This document shows, in pieces, positions 564 through 44,782 of a DNA stretch of 54,216 nucleotides. The stretch spans positions 1-54,216 of IMG/VR virus record IMGVR_UViG_3300019458_000010. The stretch is one strand, 5' to 3'. The notes under the pieces were generated by a model. That model was not told the origin of the DNA. It did no database searches and saw nothing but the letters and a program-made list of their open reading frames with translations. How positions within the stretch are numbered: position 1 is the first letter of the stretch; each line of letters starts with the position of its first letter. The DNA comes from a virus. The translations under genes were made by a program, and so were the position numbers.

Positions 564-1397
564 TTGGAATTTGATCCTCTTGCAGACCCTTGCTTCACTT
601 GTAAGTTATGGGAAAATAAGATAAATCCGTGCATTGGGCCGAAGGTTTACAAAAAAGGAGGATTAGTCCTTGTCGGAGAAGCGCCCGGAGAGAATGAAGA
701 TAAAATTGGAGATGTATTTGTGGGGAAAGCCGGGGATGTCCTACGACTTCATCTCCAAGGAATGGGAGTTACCAGCTTCACTCTCCTTAATGCAGTTAGA
801 TGCCGACCTACGGGAAAAGATAGAGGAAATCGTGCGCCAACGGCCCGGGAAGTGGCACATTGCTCCGTGTTTTTGGCCGAGGACTTGCAACAACTCAATC
901 CAACTTTATGTATCTGTCTCGGCGCAACAGCAGCAAAAGCTCTAGGACTACCCCATCTACCACTAAAGGAGCTTAGGCATCGTTCTTGGTGGGTTAGGGT
1001 GGGGTCAGAAATAGCCCTTGTAGAGGCCCCAGAGGGGCCTAGAATCGACGATCTCATACCAGTACGGGTAACCCACCACCCTGCCGCACATATGCGGCCT
1101 GGAAAGGTTAATTTACTACACGAGATGCAGCAGGATTTGGAGAAGTACGTGACTGAATATCGGGCATTGACAGGTGGCGATAAGTATGGTATACTGAACA
1201 TAGAGATGGAGGGAAAGGATAAGAAAAAACCTATTAATAATAATACTAGAACTATAAAAGAACTAGTATTAGATATAGAAACTACTGGTTTTCTTAAGGG
1301 GTATAAAGCTCTGCCCTTTGATAAAGGCGACATTCTCTTAATAGGTTGGGATGAAGGAGAAGGATATACTTCTACGACAGAAATGGGAAAGTCTTGA
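564..1397 (+). CDS. Family-4 uracil-DNA glycosylase-like domain plus the ExoI motif of a PolA 3'-5' exonuclease (N-terminal piece of a split DNA polymerase)
   Basis: CFTC..C cysteines, GEAPGENED and THHPAAHMR motifs in family-4 UDG order. C-terminal LVLDIETTG is the ExoI motif. ORF stops at TGA 1395-1397. Confidence 0.85.
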   Translation: MEFDPLADPCFTCKLWENKINPCIGPKVYKKGGLVLVGEAPGENEDKIGDVFVGKAGDVLRLHLQGMGVTSFTLLNAVRCRPTGKDRGNRAPTAREVAHCSVFLAEDLQQLNPTLCICLGATAAKALGLPHLPLKELRHRSWWVRVGSEIALVEAPEGPRIDDLIPVRVTHHPAAHMRPGKVNLLHEMQQDLEKYVTEYRALTGGDKYGILNIEMEGKDKKKPINNNTRTIKELVLDIETTGFLKGYKALPFDKGDILLIGWDEGEGYTSTTEMGKS

Positions 1398-3036
1398 GTG
1401 GGTAAAGATTGGGCATAACTTACAGTACGAAGCTATCTGGTTGTCCTATCTCTACGGGTGGCAGCTTAAAGGTCCTTGTTTTGACACGATGATAGCTGCC
1501 CACCTTCTGGACGAAAACTCTGAAGACCGCTCCCTAGATGCTCTAGCTATGAAGCATTGCGGAGCACCAGCATGGAAAGATCAATGGAAACCCTACGCCA
1601 ACGAAATGAAGACTTTGGAGTGCATGCCCGACTCCTTCTTAGCACCGCTTGCTCGTTACAACGAGCAGGATATCAAGTGGACGAAGAACTTGTATCAATA
1701 CTTCGAACCTTTATTGACAAAGCAGGGCCTTACTTCCCTATTCCGCGTGGAGATGGAAAATCTAAAAACTTTGGCAAGGATGACTGAGTGGGGAATACTA
1801 GTAGACACAGAGCTACTACATGAGTGGACAACTCATTACCGAGTTCGCTACAAAGAGTTGCAAGATTCATTTGATTTTAATCCAGCCTCGGTCCCTCAGA
1901 AGCTCACCGCACTTCGTGCCGCTGGATACAACATTGCTAGCACAGGCGACGAAGTTCTCGCTGACTTGGGAGAGGGACTACCAGCAAGGCTGCGGGAATT
2001 CAACAAGCTTCACAAGATACTTGGCACATATCTTGATGGTTTCGCAACGCAAATTTACTCCGATGGTCGAATACACCCCCAATTCCATCAAAATCGGGTT
2101 GTGTCGGGGAGACTGTCTAGCTCCGATCCTAATAGTCAAAATTTCCCCAGAGACACAAGTGAGTTGCCATTCCGAAAGCTCTTCCGAGGGACGTGGAGTC
2201 GTTTACTCCGATTTGATTTCTCCCAAATAGAACTTCGTGTTGCGGCACATCTTTCAAAGGATAAGGAGCTACTTCGTGTTTACAGGGAACATCAAGATAT
2301 CCATTCGGTTACCGGAGAGCGAATTTGGAATAAACCGGCCAGAAGTCATTCAGAAAATGAACGAGTGGCTGCCAAGGTTACCAACTTTGCTTCCCTTTAT
2401 GACCCATTCGATACGTGCTATGGTGCCGTCCGATTCAAACTACATAGTGACTACGGAATTGATTTTGACTGGCTACACACCAAGAGCTTCGTGGACGCTT
2501 TTCGTGACTCGTATCGGGGTTGGTTTTCCTCCCTACTCGGCGTCACACAGCAGGTTTACGATCAAGGGTGGGTCAGGCAGCCCATCACTGGACGCATTCG
2601 TCGAAGTCCAGGTTCCTTGCAAAGTTGGGGACTTAAGGAGCGACCCAGATCATTACAGCACCTCAGAGAGCTATGCCGAGGCAACAAGCCTTTGCAGGAA
2701 ATTATCCGAAGCATTCCAAATAGCCTTAATCAAGGGTTTGCTTCTGGAGACCTTACCAAACTCGTCTGCACCGCTATTGACCGCCAATTGCAAGCTAGAG
2801 GCTTCCGAAGCCGAGTCTGTAACATCATCCACGACGAAGCCCTCGTTGACATCTACCCGCCGGAGGAAAAGGAAATTATAGATATCGTGTACAAGACAGC
2901 GACAAATCCTCCTTTGTACGTGGCCTTTGGAACAACCATCAAAGACGTTCCCATTGAAATAGAGATAGGGATAGGAGACACATGGTCAGACGCGAAGAAA
3001 AAGGAAAACCAGATTTCCTTGGCTCCTGCATTCTAG
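1351..3036 (+). CDS. polA: Family A DNA polymerase (ExoII/ExoIII plus polymerase domain); frame open from 1345
   Basis: GHNLQYE (ExoII-like), YNEQD (ExoIII), DFSQIELRVAAHL (motif A), RVAAKVTNFASLY (motif B), IIHDEALV (motif C). Confidence 0.9.
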   Translation: MKEKDILLRQKWESLEWVKIGHNLQYEAIWLSYLYGWQLKGPCFDTMIAAHLLDENSEDRSLDALAMKHCGAPAWKDQWKPYANEMKTLECMPDSFLAPLARYNEQDIKWTKNLYQYFEPLLTKQGLTSLFRVEMENLKTLARMTEWGILVDTELLHEWTTHYRVRYKELQDSFDFNPASVPQKLTALRAAGYNIASTGDEVLADLGEGLPARLREFNKLHKILGTYLDGFATQIYSDGRIHPQFHQNRVVSGRLSSSDPNSQNFPRDTSELPFRKLFRGTWSRLLRFDFSQIELRVAAHLSKDKELLRVYREHQDIHSVTGERIWNKPARSHSENERVAAKVTNFASLYDPFDTCYGAVRFKLHSDYGIDFDWLHTKSFVDAFRDSYRGWFSSLLGVTQQVYDQGWVRQPITGRIRRSPGSLQSWGLKERPRSLQHLRELCRGNKPLQEIIRSIPNSLNQGFASGDLTKLVCTAIDRQLQARGFRSRVCNIIHDEALVDIYPPEEKEIIDIVYKTATNPPLYVAFGTTIKDVPIEIEIGIGDTWSDAKKKENQISLAPAF

Positions 3037-4129: not shown

Positions 4130-4645
4130 ATGAAGAAAGGTTTCAGTGGCACGAACGAGCTTACACAACCATCCTCAACCAAATGCGTCACCACCCTCCA
4201 CCCACCTCATCCGAAAGTGATTTACTTAATCGGCAGCCTACGTAATTCTGGCATTCCACTCATTGCAAACCAACTTCGAAAATTGGGCTACGACGTTTTT
4301 GATGACTGGTTTGCACCAGGACCAAAGGCCGATGATTGGTGGCAACACTATGAGACAACGAGAGGAAGAACATACGAGGAAGCCCTTGATGGGTATGCAG
4401 CAAAACATATATTCGAATTCGATTTCTCTCACCTATTGTGGGCCAACATCGCAATACTGGTCATGCCCGCTGGAAAGTCCGGCCACCTCGAACTCGGTTG
4501 GTTACTCGGACGTGGAGTACCTGGATATATTCTATTCGATCGTGTCCCGGAACGTTGGGACGTAATGTATCAGCTCGCTAACGGCGTCTTTTTCACTTTC
4601 GAGGGACTACGTGATACTCTCACCCGCAACCATTCGCCATCTTAA
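4130..4645 (+). CDS. Nucleoside 2-deoxyribosyltransferase-fold protein (copy 1)
   Basis: AAGGAG RBS 4 nt before ATG. Pattern KVIYLIGSLRN...ILVMPAGKSGHLELGWLLGRG resembles NDT-like Rossmann proteins. Called from motif memory only. Confidence 0.5.
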   Translation: MKKGFSGTNELTQPSSTKCVTTLHPPHPKVIYLIGSLRNSGIPLIANQLRKLGYDVFDDWFAPGPKADDWWQHYETTRGRTYEEALDGYAAKHIFEFDFSHLLWANIAILVMPAGKSGHLELGWLLGRGVPGYILFDRVPERWDVMYQLANGVFFTFEGLRDTLTRNHSPS

Positions 4646-5066
4646 GCTAGTTCATCCTTGCGTTGATGCACAAAGGTCCCATGGCGTTTCGTTCGGTCTT
4701 GGTCACGCTGGCTATGATGTTCGCATTGCCAAACACCATTGGTTATACCCTGGCCAGTTCCAGTTAGGATCAACCATGGAACGCTTTATACTACCCGATA
4801 ACGTGTTAGGAGTTGTTCATGATAAGTCTACTTGGGCTCGTAAGGGCCTATCGGTGTTCAACACTATCTTGGAACCAGGGTGGGAGGGACATTTAACATT
4901 AGAACTAGTCAATCACCATAATGAAGGGCTTTATATTCCATCAGGAGTAGGAATTGCCCAAGTTGTCTTTCACCTTCTAGACTGCGCTACTGACAACCCC
5001 TATCGAGGGAAGTACCAGAATCAAAAAGCAGGCATACAGGAGGCTATCTTTGAGTCAGCTAATTAA
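4611..5066 (+). CDS. dcd: dCTP deaminase / dUTPase-superfamily enzyme
   Basis: GYDVR, KSTWARKGL, EPGWEGHLTLELVN, GIAQVVF, YRGKYQNQ in Dcd-like order. GAGGG RBS before GTG 4611. Confidence 0.8.
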   Translation: MILSPATIRHLKLVHPCVDAQRSHGVSFGLGHAGYDVRIAKHHWLYPGQFQLGSTMERFILPDNVLGVVHDKSTWARKGLSVFNTILEPGWEGHLTLELVNHHNEGLYIPSGVGIAQVVFHLLDCATDNPYRGKYQNQKAGIQEAIFESAN

Positions 5067-7737: not shown

Positions 7738-8511
7738 ATGTCTAAGAATCGTCCTAAGCGAACCGGGGATGTGGCTATCACGCGTGTTCTCGCATTACCC
7801 GATATCCACTACCCTCTTCATGACCAGCGCGCTCTTTCTGCTGTTGAGAGTTTTATCCCAGACTTTAAGCCGGATATTGTTATCTACCTTGGCGATCAGT
7901 TGCAGATGGATTGTGTGTCACATTGGCTCGAAGATAAGCGTCGCCGACTCGAAGGACAAAGGCTCCTTAAGGACTATGAAGGATTCAGTCGGGTCCTTGA
8001 CCGACATATGGCGCTTGCGCCTGCTGCCAGGTTTGTCTTTATATTCGGGAATCACGAGGACTGGTGTCAACAATACATTGATCTTCACCCTGAGATGGAG
8101 GGGATGCTCGAAGTGGAGCATGCTCTTCGCCTACGAGAGAGGAACTTTGATGTCATCCCGTTTGGACAAGCATATCAGGTAGGTTACCTCTGGTACATTC
8201 ATGGCGTCTATACAAACGAACACCACGCCAAAGCCACCGCTCTTGCGTACCGTCGCAACGTTCGTTATGGCCATACTCATGATATTCAGCATCATACTCT
8301 TACTTCACCCGTCGATGTTGAGGATCGGATTTCCGCTTCCAGCATTGGTTGCCTCTGCAATGTTAATCCCCATTATCTACGTATGCGCCCGAACCGTTGG
8401 CAACTTGGTTTCAATGTGGCGTATGTCCGGTCAGACGGAACGTTCAATGACTTTACCATTGCCATCATTCAAGGAAAGTTCACCTTCGAGGGAAAAACAT
8501 ATGAAGGCTAA
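7738..8511 (+). CDS. Calcineurin-like metallophosphoesterase
   Basis: DIHYP, GDQLQMD, GNHEDW, IHG, GHTHD in canonical order. Confidence 0.8.
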   Translation: MSKNRPKRTGDVAITRVLALPDIHYPLHDQRALSAVESFIPDFKPDIVIYLGDQLQMDCVSHWLEDKRRRLEGQRLLKDYEGFSRVLDRHMALAPAARFVFIFGNHEDWCQQYIDLHPEMEGMLEVEHALRLRERNFDVIPFGQAYQVGYLWYIHGVYTNEHHAKATALAYRRNVRYGHTHDIQHHTLTSPVDVEDRISASSIGCLCNVNPHYLRMRPNRWQLGFNVAYVRSDGTFNDFTIAIIQGKFTFEGKTYEG

Positions 8512-8956
8512 TAGTAAGTACAATCAGACTGTTATTTCACCCGTGACTGTTGGAGAACGTATTTATACCTCAGGCACAAGCGGTAACGATTTTCTGCTTG
8601 AAGATATAAAAATTGAGGCGGAAAAAGGTGGTCGAAAGAATGACGACGGAAAATTACGTTATGACCTTATCTCTACTGTGGGCCTCAGACGGCTCGCCGA
8701 AGCATATACCATTGGGGCCAACAAGCCAGGCTATGGCGATAACAATTGGCGTAAAGGGCTGCGATGGGGAAGACTTTTCGCCTCTCTTATGCGCCACGCT
8801 TGGGCCTGGTGGACTGGAGAGCGTGACGATCCCGCGGATGGTCAGCACCACCTGGCATCGGTTGCCTGGATAGCGTTCGCACTAATGGAGTATGAAGAGT
8901 GTGGTATTGGCGAAGACGATAGGTGGAAGAAATACTCGGTCCCGTGTTCATCGTAG
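8501..8956 (+). CDS. MazG-like all-alpha dNTP pyrophosphohydrolase (dATP/dGTP diphosphohydrolase-type domain)
   Basis: ATG 8501 overlaps the upstream stop. KNDDGKLRYDL..LAEAYTIGA..YGDNNWRKG..MRHAWAWWTGERDD..DGQHHLASVAW pattern. The 8201..8500 part of the track ORF is a shadow of the upstream gene. Confidence 0.65.
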   Translation: MKANSKYNQTVISPVTVGERIYTSGTSGNDFLLEDIKIEAEKGGRKNDDGKLRYDLISTVGLRRLAEAYTIGANKPGYGDNNWRKGLRWGRLFASLMRHAWAWWTGERDDPADGQHHLASVAWIAFALMEYEECGIGEDDRWKKYSVPCSS

Positions 8957-8999: not shown

Positions 9000-9422
9000 A
9001 TGAAAGTCTACCTTAGCGGCACGATAGCGGGGTTAAACTACGAACAAGCAAACGCGTGGCGTGTAGATGCTACCGAGAAACTTAGAGATTTTGGTATTCA
9101 AACAATTAACCCCCTACGAGGACGGATGTTCGGAGAATCCTCCGAGGAAATCTTCGATCCCAACGAGCTTGTACATCGTGACCTCCGAGACCTTCGTGTA
9201 TGCGATATTGTTCTTGCTTATATGGACACGCTATCTCTCGGTACAGCAATGGAGATTTGGCATACCTACTACACTGAAAAGAAGCCGGTGATCTTTGTCA
9301 CAACGAATGACCAGATTCGAAATCACCCCTGGATTCATGTGACAAGTACCAAAATCTTTTGTACCCTTGATGAGGCCATCACTTATATCGTGACAAGATG
9401 GGCTGACGAGGAAGAGATTTGA
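9000..9422 (+). CDS. Nucleoside 2-deoxyribosyltransferase-fold protein (copy 2)
   Basis: MKVYLSGTIAG..., CDIVLAYMDTLSLGTAMEIW (S-x-G-T-x-x-E) typical of NDT-like proteins. Confidence 0.6.
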   Translation: MKVYLSGTIAGLNYEQANAWRVDATEKLRDFGIQTINPLRGRMFGESSEEIFDPNELVHRDLRDLRVCDIVLAYMDTLSLGTAMEIWHTYYTEKKPVIFVTTNDQIRNHPWIHVTSTKIFCTLDEAITYIVTRWADEEEI

Positions 9423-10643: not shown

Positions 10644-10660
10644 GTAAATAAAAACAATAA

Positions 10661-10697
10661 AGCCCTGGGGGCTACAAACCTCCAGGGCTTTTTCTTT
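10661..10697. terminator. Bidirectional intrinsic terminator at the convergence of the two arms
   Basis: agccctgg(10661-10668)/ccagggct(10682-10689) stem, followed by ttttctttc on + and by ttattgttttta on -. Confidence 0.8.
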
Positions 10698-39891: not shown

Positions 39892-40003
39892 CAAATACCC
39901 GAAGAATTTCAAGTTTCGCCTTTTCTGATAGAGTATATCGGTCAAAGATTTCTCTGAGGAAGTATATAGCAAACTTTGCTAATATAGTCCCCAAGAGTTC
40001 CAT
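39743..40003 (-). CDS. Hypothetical helical protein (i-spanin candidate, weak)
   Basis: Starts 13 nt after the holin-like stop. Hydrophobic N-terminus LLGTILAKFAIYFL, then helical; only 86 aa. Confidence 0.4.
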   Translation of the reverse strand: MELLGTILAKFAIYFLREIFDRYTLSEKAKLEILRVFDERVLQANLWLLDARIRPNSDRLRDSGGQLTITTTCPVCGATFDPLLPA

Positions 40004-40016
40004 TTATTATTATTAG

Positions 40017-40196
40017 TTAGCTAGAAGGCGGGGGGCTACTAACAGGTGACTTGAGCAGAGATGCGATAACCGTTGCTAGGCCAGCTAGGACGGCAACCAG
40101 AGTCGGGTTCGCCTGCACAAAGGGAAGGAGTATGTCTGAAAAGGCGCCGATCAAGGCCACGACAGCCCCGACGACGGCGGGGAGCCATTTGAGCAT
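40017..40196 (-). CDS. Holin-like protein with two predicted TM helices (59 aa, below the ORF-track cutoff)
   Basis: ATG overlaps the ClpP-like stop (TAATG) with AAGGAGG upstream. MLKWLPAVVGAVVALIGAFSDILLPFVQANPTLVAVLAGLATVIASLLKSPVSSPPPSS. Confidence 0.55.
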   Translation of the reverse strand: MLKWLPAVVGAVVALIGAFSDILLPFVQANPTLVAVLAGLATVIASLLKSPVSSPPPSS

Positions 40197-40834: not shown

Positions 40835-41796
40835 TCTGGTGTCACCTCAGTTTTGAGGGATCGTACTTTCTTAGTTTTCTTCGGAGCTTCGCTCATAAAC
40901 AGCCGTTTAAAGGCAGCGAACACCTCTTGTCCAGAGGGCACATCTAAGGGGCCGAATTCACCACGAATAGGCACCTGACCAGGGCTTATAGGCTCTGCGA
41001 GGGGCCTAGGAGGCTCAAAGCCGGGGAAGAGGGCTCCTGATATGCTCTCTCCTTCAGGAACGCTCGCTTCGGCCTTTGCCTTGATACTCTCCAATTCATC
41101 AGGGGCTAATTTACCCCTAGGAGGGCCTGCTTTCTGTAAAAGGACTTTTCCAACAGGAGCTACTGGCGCTTCCTCGGTTGCCCCAACTTCTGCGCCTCGT
41201 GTTGCTTGTCTAATTCGATGTTTGCCTGTTACCTCACCCCGGAGCTTACGGAGTTCATTCTGAAACGTCCCTCGACTACCTTTAGGTCGTGGTTTTGTCG
41301 GATCAACGATATGGTCGAGATACTCCTTAAGGCGGGGGCTTGCTGCTTCATAAATCTGCTTTGCTTTAGCTCCTAGGCCAGAAGAACCCTCTTCAGCAGC
41401 CGTAAGCCTTGCAAAGATGCTTTCTGGGTCTGTTTGTTTCTCTAAAACCTCCGGCTTGGCTTTTGTGCGGTATTTTGTCAACTTATCCTGTGCGGAGGCT
41501 AGAAACTCGTCAATGCCTCGTTTTGCTGCACCTGGTACCTCTGCCGAAGGCATACCCCGTTTAAAGTGAGTAGCTGCTGACTGTAAGAGGTCTGCGTACT
41601 CTGCCGAAGCATCTTGTAAGACTTTTGGTGAAATCCCCTTGGCATATTTTGAGGCAGCCTGTAGTAGTTTCAGAATCTCTGGGTCTTCAGCAAGACCTTT
41701 GGAAAGAGGCCCGAGCATACCAACCCCACGAACATTTGTAGCCTGCCCAAGGGCTCTGGCTATTTTCATGATGATTGTGGGGTCTATTGTTGCCAT
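40831..41796 (-). CDS. Hypothetical protein, first gene of the late operon
   Basis: Track ORF, K/E/A/P-rich, no motif recognised. Confidence 0.55.
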   Translation of the reverse strand: MATIDPTIIMKIARALGQATNVRGVGMLGPLSKGLAEDPEILKLLQAASKYAKGISPKVLQDASAEYADLLQSAATHFKRGMPSAEVPGAAKRGIDEFLASAQDKLTKYRTKAKPEVLEKQTDPESIFARLTAAEEGSSGLGAKAKQIYEAASPRLKEYLDHIVDPTKPRPKGSRGTFQNELRKLRGEVTGKHRIRQATRGAEVGATEEAPVAPVGKVLLQKAGPPRGKLAPDELESIKAKAEASVPEGESISGALFPGFEPPRPLAEPISPGQVPIRGEFGPLDVPSGQEVFAAFKRLFMSEAPKKTKKVRSLKTEVTPE

Positions 41797-41812
41797 GTAT
41801 ACCTACTATCAC

Positions 41813-41834
41813 AAAAAGGCCCCTAAAAGGGGCC
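41813..41834 (-). terminator. Intrinsic terminator 16 nt upstream of the first late gene
   Basis: Minus strand reads ggcccc-tttta-ggggcc followed by ttttt. Confidence 0.65.
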
Positions 41835-41859
41835 CAGTCAATAACCCAGTCAAAGGCCC

Positions 41860-41965
41860 TTATATATATATTATATTAATAATAATATATAGCCCCCTAC
41901 GGGGGCTCTAGTATATATATTATATATATTATTTATATATTATATTATATATATTATATATACTC
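41860..41965. repeat. TA-rich low-complexity tract interrupted by a GC hairpin (agccccc-tac-gggggct, 41891-41907)
   Basis: tatatatatattatattaataataatatat + hairpin + gtatatatattatatatattatttatatattatattatatatattatatata. Confidence 0.9.
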
Positions 41966-41990
41966 TTCTTTCCCTCACCTCTCTAAGACC

Positions 41991-42019
41991 AGTATACCAT
42001 GAGAAACACTATTTGTCAA
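41991..42019 (-). promoter_or_regulatory. Near-consensus sigma70-type promoter facing the late operon
   Basis: Minus strand: TTGACA (42019-42014), 17-nt spacer, TGgTATACT (extended -10; hexamer 41996-41991). Confidence 0.6.
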
Positions 42020-42328
42020 GAGAAAAATAATGTTCTTCGGCCTTTTCTTTACCTGCCCTATTTTCATACACTTTATAGCTTACCTGTAGCAAAATGCTAC
42101 ATGGGCCTAGCAAGTTGGTAAGTGTATGAATGTAGGGCCTCTTACCCATTAGGGAGGGGCCCCTCAAGCCCCCTGGGCCGCCTGAAGTCCTACAGGCGTA
42201 TGGTGTGGCAAGGATGACACAGGGGGAGGATGTCAACCCACTCACCCATTTGTCAGTCAATCGAGTGCCCGAATTCACATCACCCGGTCAACACTGACGC
42301 AGTCAACAATTTAGCCTGGAGGTGCGCT

Positions 42329-42523
42329 ATGTTCTCTGTGTGGTGTGACGCGTGCGGCTGGGTTGCCATGCGCCTCGGGACCAAAGCCGAGGCTAGCTCC
42401 CAAGCCCAGAAACACATCCCTGCCATGCTATGGGGGTGCATCCGGCTTCCTGACACGGCCCATGTTTGCGAGATCATGATGCAAATTGGGCGCAATCCGT
42501 ACGAGAACGTCAAGGTCGGCTAA
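42329..42523 (+). CDS. Early hypothetical protein
   Basis: GGAGGTG 4 nt before ATG 42329. The upstream part of track ORF 42230.. lacks an RBS. Confidence 0.55.
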   Translation: MFSVWCDACGWVAMRLGTKAEASSQAQKHIPAMLWGCIRLPDTAHVCEIMMQIGRNPYENVKVG

Positions 42524-42547
42524 AGTACCCAATAAGGAGGACAACCT

Positions 42548-42733
42548 ATGAGCAGAACAAGCGGAGAGTTTTGGTACTGCAATGTCTGCCGTGCGCAGAA
42601 CCACGAGGTTGACGGTGAGTGTCAGTACTGCGAATGTGCTGGCGCTGGATGCCGTCGAGACTCATGCTCCGACCCACGCCACTTCACCTATGAAGAGTCC
42701 GTGCTGCCCGGTTTGACATCACTAGGTCAATAA
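42548..42733 (+). CDS. Early zinc-ribbon mini-protein
   Basis: AAGGAGG RBS; WYCNVCRAQN...GECQYC Cys4. Confidence 0.6.
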   Translation: MSRTSGEFWYCNVCRAQNHEVDGECQYCECAGAGCRRDSCSDPRHFTYEESVLPGLTSLGQ

Positions 42734-42750
42734 CGTATAGGGGCACGAAT

Positions 42751-42783
42751 CCGCCCCGGGGAGATTGCGTCAAACCGGGGCGG
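42751..42783 (+). promoter_or_regulatory. GC-rich stem-loop between early genes
   Basis: ccgccccgg (42751-42759) pairs with ccggggcgg (42775-42783): 9-bp perfect stem, 15-nt loop, no U-tract. Confidence 0.5.
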
Positions 42784-42794
42784 CCACAACAAGC

Positions 42795-42809
42795 TGTCAA
42801 TAGTTGACA
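42795..42809. promoter_or_regulatory. Operator-like palindrome TGTCAA-TAG-TTGACA
   Basis: Perfect 6+6 inverted repeat ending 22 nt upstream of ATG 42831. Confidence 0.45.
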
Positions 42810-42830
42810 ATTCAAGACGGGAGGGATGCC

Positions 42831-43724: not shown

Positions 43725-43798
43725 TGTTGTAGGTCTGATAAGAGGGCCCGGAGCCCGGCTTGCTCTAAGAGCAAGTAGAGACAATCAGACCTACAACA
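43725..43798. repeat. Nested inverted repeat (15-bp perfect arms enclosing a 7-bp hairpin)
   Basis: tgttgtaggtctgat (43725-43739) / atcagacctacaaca (43784-43798); inner cttgctc-taa-gagcaag (43759-43775). Confidence 0.85.
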
Positions 43799-43835: not shown

Positions 43836-44705
43836 ATGCCACAAACCAAGACTGACCTGAAGAAACAAGCGCAGGAAAGAAAGGAAAGGGATTCACTGCG
43901 GGAGTATGCGGAGACTTTCTTCGCACGGCATGGGCAAGACGTGTTCGATGGTCTCGGGGTAGCGGTAGGGCTGAAGCATTGGCTTGGCCTTACCACAATC
44001 TATCTAGACCTTGCCAGGCCGTGGGGCAAGAAAGGGCGTGAACGTCTAGGCTCCCCCGACGGTGACGGTTGGGTTAGTGTGGACGAGCTAACTAACCTTC
44101 TACATATTCAAAGGGCAAGGGTCACACTTCAAACCGCTCTGAGGATATGCAAAGCCATAAGGGGATACCTGACCAAAGAGGTTGGTGACTACAAAGGGGC
44201 GTTTCCGAAGGTTGCGGAAGAGTTATACGAAATAGCACAAGTCAATTTCGCCAACTCGACTGTGACCATCAACGCCCTGTACAAAGCTGCCAAGTCTGAC
44301 TCACGCTTTCGCGATGACCTTGCCGTGAAAGCCCCCGACTGGCAGTCGCGTGCCGCGGGAACGTACAACACCCTGCTTAGGCGCTTGGCGTGCGTTGGGT
44401 TGGATTCAGACACGCTATCCAAGCGCCATAGCAAGGACGAACTAACAATCGCCGATGCACCGTTTCTGTTTCTGACCGTTCCTCAACTTGAGGGATTAAT
44501 TACGGCGGTTGATGAGGCGGTGGTACGCCACAAGCGGTCAGCCCCTCTTGAGGCGCGGATTGCAGTAGCCAACGACTTACTGGATATCGCAATCGCGCAG
44601 GCCGACAACGAAAGCATAGCAGCCCAGATGGAAGAGGCCATAGCGGCTGACGAAGGGGCTAGAGCAGAGATGAAGCCCGCCATGCAGGGCGCAGAGGCAA
44701 CGTAA
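43836..44705 (+). CDS. Hypothetical 289-aa early/middle protein
   Basis: Track ORF with GGGGAA RBS; no motif recognised. Confidence 0.6.
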   Translation: MPQTKTDLKKQAQERKERDSLREYAETFFARHGQDVFDGLGVAVGLKHWLGLTTIYLDLARPWGKKGRERLGSPDGDGWVSVDELTNLLHIQRARVTLQTALRICKAIRGYLTKEVGDYKGAFPKVAEELYEIAQVNFANSTVTINALYKAAKSDSRFRDDLAVKAPDWQSRAAGTYNTLLRRLACVGLDSDTLSKRHSKDELTIADAPFLFLTVPQLEGLITAVDEAVVRHKRSAPLEARIAVANDLLDIAIAQADNESIAAQMEEAIAADEGARAEMKPAMQGAEAT

Positions 44706-44734
44706 GACAGGCGAGGCGCGGGTGAGAGAAATGA

Positions 44735-44782
44735 GGGCTAGTTAGGTGTCCGAAAATCGGGCATCTAGCTGGCCCTTTTTGT
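44735..44782 (+). terminator. Strong intrinsic terminator
   Basis: 19-bp RNA hairpin 44735-44775 (4 G-U pairs, loop aaa) followed by ttttt. Confidence 0.75.

Follow-up and report, generated by a model that had tools for sequence, protein, structure and literature searches.

The window analysed here, all 54,216 nucleotides (nt) of the IMG/VR virus record IMGVR_UViG_3300019458_000010, is a complete phage genome that was assembled as a circle. On its minus strand, between positions 42019 and 41797, a short non-coding element stands directly ahead of a late operon of 31 kb. We tentatively interpret this element as a promoter joined to a DNA-unwinding module, which may act as an origin primed by transcription and at the same time as the driver of the late operon, and which in this lineage is combined with an attenuating terminator. 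The module would consist of an A/T-rich upstream stretch, a near-consensus host promoter, a polypurine transcript start, and easily melted TA tracts clamped by a GC hairpin. One copy would head the packaging and structural operon, and a reduced copy would lie in frame in the linker between UDG and PolA. In themselves, the promoter and the terminator are ordinary; what is noteworthy is the extreme character of the TA tracts, the in-frame duplication in a polymerase gene and the conservation across an uncultivated clade. The clade has neither an RNA polymerase nor a sigma factor recognisable as its own, nor any known anti-terminator, yet a host promoter heads its structural genes, which raises the question of how late expression is delayed or dosed.

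The comparisons below draw on relatives that were retrieved either through the first late gene (L008-L010) or through TerL, at 66-71% identity (L011-L018 and L021). The promoter comparison covers nine relatives and the terminator comparison eight. Farther TerL relatives (30-36% identity) were set aside, as their genomes are low in GC and A/T runs are uninformative there.

The late promoter and the start of its transcript

The promoter, TTGACA-17-TGgTATACT, occupies 42019-41991 on the minus strand and combines a consensus -35 hexamer (TTGACA, 42019-42014), a 17-nt spacer and an extended -10 element (TGg, 41999-41997; TATACT, 41996-41991). A preliminary description of this DNA had proposed this promoter, together with a transcript start near 41984 that is followed by a purine-rich stretch, and both agree with the sequence. 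The promoter is the sole 11/12 consensus match within 36-48 kb, and the top promoter score is reached at only two sites in 54 kb, namely 42019 on the minus strand and 1167 on the plus strand. A matching promoter is found ahead of the homologous first late gene in all nine relatives, with spacer sequences that are unrelated; its general form is TTGACA(AA)-17-TG(G/C)(T/C)A(T/C)A(C/A)T, and that of L018 is TAGACA-17-TATACT. Since it has been kept in every relative while the spacers diverged, we take the late promoter to be real and of the type used by host RNA polymerase. Judged by its sequence and conservation, 42019-41991 is a genuine, very strong sigma70/sigmaA-type promoter heading the 31-kb operon. 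Just upstream of the -35 hexamer lies an A/T-rich stretch, gaagaacattatttttctc (42041-42020, minus strand), that may function in the manner of an UP element, and comparable stretches precede the -35 hexamer in L009, L010, L016 and L017.

The predicted transcript starts at A41984 with a polypurine, Shine-Dalgarno-like sequence, AGAGAGGTGAGGGAAAGAAGAG (41984-41963, minus strand). Within it, GAGGTGA at +6 to +12 fits the anti-Shine-Dalgarno core, and no start codon follows at initiation distance. Purine-rich transcript starts also occur in L009, L017, L018, L092 and L093. The corresponding region of L011 (5802-5921) differs in layout, in that an ATG 9 nt past the -10 element, and not the called start another 79 nt on, is the probable start of its late gene, whose mRNA would then be nearly leaderless. 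Two other motifs were considered as promoter signals or dropped for lack of enrichment: an ATACTAG-type motif is not spread over the genome, which rules it out as a phage-specific promoter, and a TCGGGCA motif is merely about 2-fold enriched.

Unstable DNA at the promoter and a second copy in the polymerase gene

Behind the polypurine start, the leader contains a 51-nt tract made of T and A only (41962-41912, minus strand), which is the least stable duplex in the genome (z = 7.1) and carries four sense-strand TATAAT hexamers. A CTAG separates it from a perfect GC hairpin, AGCCCCC-GTA-GGGGGCT (41907-41891, minus strand; -13.9 kcal/mol), and on the other side of this hairpin stands a second TA-only tract of 32 nt (41891-41860, minus strand) that is 83% complementary to the first over 29 nt. 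Apart from these two, the 54 kb contain no A/T-only run longer than 14 nt. Two direct repeats of TTGACTGGG follow on the minus strand, 12 nt apart (41853-41845 and 41841-41833), the second of which overlaps the 5' arm of the terminator described below. Thus the AU-rich tract, the GC hairpin and the tandem repeats that had been noticed earlier are all present, and they exceed what chance would give. Indeed, the 194-nt leader folds better than 200 of 200 shuffled sequences (z = -3.3 as RNA and -4.0 as DNA).

The instability of this DNA is tied to the promoter. The two least stable 50-100-bp duplexes of the genome are found at 41861-41962 (z = 6.4-7.1) and 1180-1281 (z = 4.4-4.7), and each of the two best promoters is followed directly by one of them. 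In all six relatives with at least 10 kb of sequence (L011, L012, L013, L016, L017 and L018), the least stable 60 bp fall within about 150 bp of the late promoter; they lie upstream of it in L011, L012 and L013, downstream in L016, and overlap it in L017 and L018. Among the short loci, the least stable DNA is at +0 in L009, overlapping the promoter, and at +195, downstream, in L010. GC hairpins that lack U tracts are present in every relative. With or without TA tracts, they lie downstream of the promoter in the window and in L016, L010, L017, L009 and L018; in L011, L012 and L013 both TA tracts and GC hairpins are upstream, and the leader is only about 3-30 nt long. The site of the late promoter also coincides with the point at which gene orientation diverges and with the minimum of the cumulative GC skew, and its neighbours are an iteron-like group of TTGAC motifs and the conserved non-coding block, both described below.

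A second copy of the module lies on the plus strand at 1167-1281, where it forms an in-frame part of the linker that joins the UDG domain to the PolA ExoI motif. It is composed of TTGACA-17-TGgTATACT (1167-1195), TAGAGATGGAGGGAAAG (1201-1217) and an A/T-rich tract (1231-1281), and has no terminator. Both promoters have ATGGTATACTG-N5-TAGAGA-N2-3-GAGGGAAAG in common, in the same register. The late-leader counterpart of TAGAGATGGAGGGAAAG is TAGAGAGGTGAGGGAAAG, and 27 of 20000 random genomic 41-mers align as well. The window thus holds two copies of the module, both at conserved positions. A spacer at 39920-40020 was examined as a third copy and rejected, being a mere A/T-rich intergenic region.

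Among homologs of the polymerase, the linker varies in length and sequence, and the peptides that spell out the promoter are kept (LT for TTGACN, (G/A)IL for the extended -10 element). The polymerase gene of L092 carries a full in-frame module, comprising TTGACA-17-TGcTATACT, CTAGAGGGTGAGGAGAG, a TA-only tract, the hairpin AAGGCCCC-TAC-GGGGCCT and a second TA-only tract, which is translated as ...SSIYNNIYNNKAPTGPIYNIL... The hairpin at the same site in L091 reads AAGGCCCC-GAA-GGGGCCTT, so that the stem is kept and the loop differs, as does the encoded residue; in four homologs the hairpin is encoded as KAPTGP or KAPKGP. In L091 and L092, no other DNA of the locus is less stable than this site. 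Conservation is weaker at the L091 site, and L093 retains the promoter and purine-rich start only. A regulatory DNA element maintained in frame within a polymerase gene would be an unusual case of overlapping codes.

Two further features of this gene may be recorded here. A third hairpin of the GGCCCC/GGGGCC type, AGGCCCC-AGA-GGGGCCT (1024-1040, plus strand), lies within the UDG gene, 127 nt ahead of the linker promoter; it encodes EAPEGP, a peptide kept in four homologs (P0103-P0106). The UDG open reading frame itself (ORF; 564-1397, plus strand) ends in the PolA ExoI motif LVLDIETTG, and the remainder of PolA is encoded in an overlapping ORF in another frame (1351-3036). Since seven of seven homologs end at the same place, this split reflects a conserved frameshift or a split polymerase and not an error.

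Immediately upstream of the late promoter region is a single-copy, conserved non-coding block of about 100 nt (42183-42081, minus strand), with the pattern GGCGGCC-GGGGG...AATGGG..AGA..CCC...ACTTAsCAA...GTGTAGC-loop-GCTACA. Its nucleotide sequence is conserved in nine of nine relatives, always in the same orientation, and better than that of the leader. A protein-coding role was rejected, as stops interrupt the sole shared frame in L011, L012 and L017 and conservation runs past them. Folding with RNAalifold gave no convincing structure, only one weak hairpin on either strand, from eight distinct sequences that carry no covariation power.

Proposed transcription-primed unwinding and its alternatives

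Low duplex stability and a GC clamp are kept whether the TA/GC segment stands before the promoter, after it or within a coding region, and a conserved role of this segment at the DNA level is for that reason more likely than one in the mRNA leader. We suggest that it could act as an unwinding element fired by transcription, with the purine-rich transcript forming a stable RNA-DNA hybrid. The late operon would be transcribed from the same promoter. Most transcripts should stop at 41817-41812, to give an RNA of about 170 nt, and the late genes would be reached by read-through, either as a passive leak amplified by genome copy number or with the help of some factor. PolA, a DnaB-like helicase and a Toprim primase are encoded in the window, and no replication initiator was recognised among the window proteins scanned. 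Matching the best promoter with the least stable duplex, as done here for two sites and for relatives, would offer a simple, sequence-only way to nominate transcription-primed origins in metagenomic phages.

Two well-known origins resemble this arrangement. In phage T4, oriG lies in gene 34. The minimal structure of T4 oriF and oriG is a promoter plus an A+T-rich unwinding element of about 50 bp, of which no specific sequence is required, and replication is primed by an R-loop transcript (PMC3016281). Both copies in the window likewise form units of about 100-130 bp in which a promoter is followed by the most unstable DNA; there are two of them, one inside a coding region, and the phage has its own replisome, has no recognisable initiator protein and shows no sequence conservation in the unwinding element. 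In contrast to the MotA-dependent T4 promoters, those found here match the full host consensus. Further differences are that a GC hairpin sits inside the unwinding tract, that the element heads a late operon, and that some relatives have the tract upstream of their promoter. The primary origin of T7 is formed by the promoters phi1.1A and phi1.1B and an A/T-rich region, beside the RNase III site R1.1. Shared with it are a promoter reading into an A/T-rich stretch, an RNA hairpin nearby and a T7-like set of PolA, helicase and primase. Our promoters are of host type and not for a phage RNA polymerase, however, and the A/T content is far more extreme (100% over 51 nt).

Several observations weigh against the putative origin. 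The minimum of GC skew is weak evidence, because it is confounded with the switch in gene orientation. In L011, L012 and L013 the TA/GC segment lies upstream of the late promoter, so that transcription into it needs another promoter; the candidate in L012 and L013 is a moderate TTAGCA-17-CATAAT inside the conserved block, and no better one was seen there. TA-only tracts are missing from L009, L017 and L018, which have only A-rich polypurine and GC hairpins, and the polymerase-gene site of L093 is not unusually unstable. A/T-rich flanks are frequent at strong promoters on other grounds. At the level of RNA, the polypurine start and the hairpins make equal sense, for instance as a 5' stabiliser or as processing sites. 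Finally, the TATAAT hexamers of the late leader are distributed unevenly between the strands (five sense, none antisense), which suggests a strand-specific role that a pure unwinding element would not need. Genome-wide, this hexamer is depleted, with two copies on the plus strand and nine on the minus strand where about 13 per strand would be expected; the late leader accounts for five of these nine.

A more specific form of the same proposal, which we consider doubtful, is that the module is a portable origin fired by host RNA polymerase. The late copy would couple replication to late transcription, the other would have been domesticated as the UDG-PolA linker, and the added terminator would have become a late gate. 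If it were true, the initiation of replication and late transcription would be physically coupled. A mobile unit of related composition is known from T4-type phages, whose PeSL cassettes are numerous promoter/stem-loop units flanking variable genes (PMC2839356, PMC4122927). Like these cassettes, our module pairs a sigma70-type promoter with a stem-loop in a small unit that occurs more than once in the genome and is apparently mobile, and L011, L012 and L013 have the order of stem-loop then promoter. Unlike the cassettes, it is present in only two copies, at fixed and conserved places, contains TA-only tracts and in one case lies in frame within a gene.

The leader ends in an intrinsic terminator (41835-41810, minus strand; -14.9 kcal/mol), in which the hairpin GGGCCCCU-UUU-AGGGGCCU (41835-41817) is followed by UUUUGUG. 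The last U of the terminator is at 41813, and 16 nt separate it from the ATG at 41796. The preliminary description had placed a terminator at just this distance from the first late gene, and a canonical one is indeed there; the hairpin and U tract stand, and the fold given for them (ggcccc-uuuua-ggggcc) is replaced by an 8-bp stem with six G-C pairs and a 3-nt loop. Only two other clear strong terminators exist in the genome, a convergent one at 10659-10691 and one at 44733-44782, with which it shares the tail CCUUUUUGUG. Since terminator-like hits elsewhere are at the level of shuffled sequence, it is not a chance hairpin. No further strong terminator was found inside the late operon. The interval from promoter to late gene contains no U-tract terminator in any of the eight relatives compared; as judged from these sequences, the late-leader terminator is real yet lineage-specific.

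From its position behind the late promoter it follows that polymerase should largely stop after about 170 nt and that the late genes need read-through. This suggests a switch of the lambda PR'-tR' type, in which the promoter would be constitutive, transcription would stop at 41817-41812 and a phage protein or the leader RNA in cis would enable late read-through. We consider this rather unlikely as an account of the element, and note that such a switch and an origin are mutually compatible and can coexist. In lambda, the strong constitutive promoter PR' makes a short 6S RNA that ends at tR', and anti-termination by Q opens the late operon. The layout here is exactly the same: a strong sigma70 promoter, a leader of about 170 nt and a canonical intrinsic terminator, one of so few strong ones in the genome, 16 nt before the first gene of a long late operon. 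In both cases -10-like hexamers occur early in the leader. Four of these TATAAT hexamers lie on the non-template strand at +27 to +66 and could give sigma-dependent pausing. There is none within the first 25 nt of the late transcript, and this too differs from lambda, where the hexamers lie within the first 10-25 nt and do not begin at +27.

The need for read-through may not be confined to the late operon. The terminator at 44733-44782 (plus strand), a very strong one with a long stem (-36.6 kcal/mol), follows the first 2.4 kb of plus-strand genes and has equivalents in L012 (3503-3465), L016 (3515-3490), L017 (3521-3480) and L018 (657-611), making five lineages in all. No consensus promoter was found downstream of it. 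Since it is conserved and has no such promoter behind it, the clade may read through terminators; the genes beyond it seem to need read-through, and some anti-termination activity in the clade is credible on these grounds. The transcript start common to both module copies could be the loading site of such an activity, and many small zinc-ribbon proteins encoded by early genes have no assigned function. For the early genes themselves, the plus strand yielded no sigma70-like promoter within 42020-42330, nor did the same interval of relatives, although the promoters of the late operon and the polymerase-gene site are such close matches to the consensus.

Against a lambda-type switch stands first of all the comparison with relatives. 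The terminator is missing from all eight, L011, L012 and L013 are practically leaderless behind the same promoter, and the duplicated promoter unit in the polymerase gene has no terminator. Read-through is for these reasons not a conserved logic, and the earlier proposal that it gates the late operon is plausible for this phage and does not extend to the clade. Among more than 50 window proteins scanned against Pfam and PHROG there was neither an RNA polymerase nor a sigma factor, and neither Q, N nor any other anti-terminator of a known family, in agreement with the earlier remark that no Q-like gene is recognisable, and no phage RNA polymerase was found among the large late proteins. The phage thus differs from lambda in lacking a Q-family gene, in having a non-coding block as the upstream neighbour, and in the two respects just given (no terminator in relatives, a promoter unit duplicated in a polymerase gene). 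Moreover, moderate promoter-like sites occur within the late operon (39049, 35069 and 23296).

The leader RNA fares no better as an anti-terminator. In HK022, put is a conserved RNA that packs two stems into about 70 nt, and the hairpins just past a strong promoter, with no protein factor recognised, recall it. Here, however, they are simple GC clamps split by TA-only tracts, do not align among relatives and lie upstream of the promoter in three relatives. The leaders of relatives vary in the number and position of hairpins and have no two-hairpin fold in common, and Rfam 15 gave no match at gathering score in the window or in nine relatives. A put-like RNA, as had been suggested, is thus not borne out: of the proposed check by folding and covariation, the folding part succeeds for the window leader, which outdoes its shuffles, and the comparative part finds neither an alignment nor a common fold. 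A pairing of the 5' polypurine with the terminator tail, seen in the full-length minimum-free-energy structure, was rejected as an anti-terminator, since it is made of G-U and A-U pairs and is not conserved.

It is also possible, though unlikely, that we are dealing with an ordinary strong promoter and a long, structured 5' untranslated region, in which the polypurine start protects the mRNA, the hairpins serve in processing or stabilisation, and the terminator is a fixed attenuator that sets the level of expression. Polypurine or Shine-Dalgarno-like stabilisers at 5' mRNA ends (STAB-SD, SP82) were reportedly established in Bacillus by Agaisse and Lereclus in 1996 and Hue et al in 1995, both cited in PMC3997798. 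By sequence the late transcript resembles them, with its polypurine at the extreme 5' end and no usable start codon after GAGGTGA, and this likeness covers only the first 22 nt of the leader. The recurrence of purine-rich starts behind both promoters and in relatives, the combination of TGn extended -10 promoters with strong Shine-Dalgarno sequences, which would suit a Bacillus-like host, and the GC hairpins without U tracts in the leader of every relative all agree with this explanation. It leaves unexplained the 51- and 32-nt TA-only tracts, the position of tracts and hairpins upstream of the promoter in L011, L012 and L013, and the maintenance of the module in frame within a coding region. 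The GTDB genomes searched for a host contained no close relative and allowed no host to be assigned, so that an RNase J in the host would be a supposition. Even if the element were only a promoter, leader and attenuator, and so ordinary, it would provide a well-defined strong promoter/terminator pair for a phage group that has no cultured member.

A role in packaging, with the TTGAC repeats bound by a helix-turn-helix protein like a small terminase and the TA/GC segment acting as a pac site or terminal-repeat boundary, appears very unlikely. The region does contain the densest TTGAC cluster of the genome, with 14 copies in 41840-42810, 11 of them on the minus strand, against about two expected; it includes a 26-nt repeat (42266-42291 and 42705-42730), both copies of TTGACTGGG and four further motifs between the conserved block and the first plus-strand gene (42310-42232, minus strand; ATG of the gene at 42329). 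It also lies upstream of the packaging genes, of which a 192-amino-acid protein just before TerL has a helix-turn-helix like that of sigma-70 region 4. Three assemblies of the phage (54.1-54.2 kb) are mutual circular permutations, as expected for a terminally redundant genome, and the short metagenomic contigs L009, L010 and L014 end at most about 130 nt from the block, an anecdotal observation. However, relatives have only two or three TTGAC in the corresponding region, the copy in the polymerase gene is left unexplained, and the contig ends stem from low-coverage assemblies. Least probable is that the short transcript of about 170 nt is made for its own sake, as an abundant trans-acting small RNA of the phage: a strong promoter and a good terminator do bound a discrete RNA that folds better than shuffles, but no relative conserves its sequence or bounds it by a terminator, about half of it is low-complexity TA-only sequence, and it has no Rfam match.

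Gene layout and neighbouring features

The phage is remote from all cultured ones. No sequenced phage has a TerL more than 28% identical to its own, and near-identical DNA was found in none of 50,697 phage records. IMG/VR yielded fragments only, of which L001 breaks off inside the first late gene, and two DNA-pattern scans of IMG/VR gave chance matches or none. The promoter and leader region is not an artefact of assembly, as 603 nt are identical in an independent assembly of the same phage.

A divergent layout of early and late genes is common to all relatives. The minus-strand genes of the window run from 41796 to 10926. The first of them (41796-40831, minus strand) encodes a protein of 321 amino acids that belongs to no known family and is homologous to the product of the first late gene of L018 and L012; it is followed by genes for a ClpP-like protease, a small helix-turn-helix protein, TerL, an SU10-type portal, capsid and tail proteins. 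The plus-strand genes extend from 42329 via the window end to 10643. They encode many small proteins, a phiEco32-like COOH-NH2 ligase, a GATase, a Toprim primase, UDG, PolA, a DnaB-like helicase, and dCTP-deaminase-like, Cas4-like, MazZ-like and deoxyribosyltransferase proteins.

Three minor observations concern the early genes. On the plus strand, an inverted repeat at 43725-43798, whose 15-bp arms match perfectly and enclose a structured loop of 44 nt, lies in the 5' untranslated region of a gene for a protein of 289 amino acids (43836-44705). The genes for the dCTP-deaminase-like protein (4611-5066), the MazZ-like dATP/dGTP diphosphohydrolase (8201-8956) and the nucleoside 2-deoxyribosyltransferase (9000-9422), all on the plus strand, are encoded together, and this combination hints at a modified DNA base. 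Lastly, beside the early genes of the related phage contig L016 (NCBI GCA_040961615.1) lie, at 1-1195, genes for an RNA ligase and for a release-factor-like protein (PCRF/RF-1).

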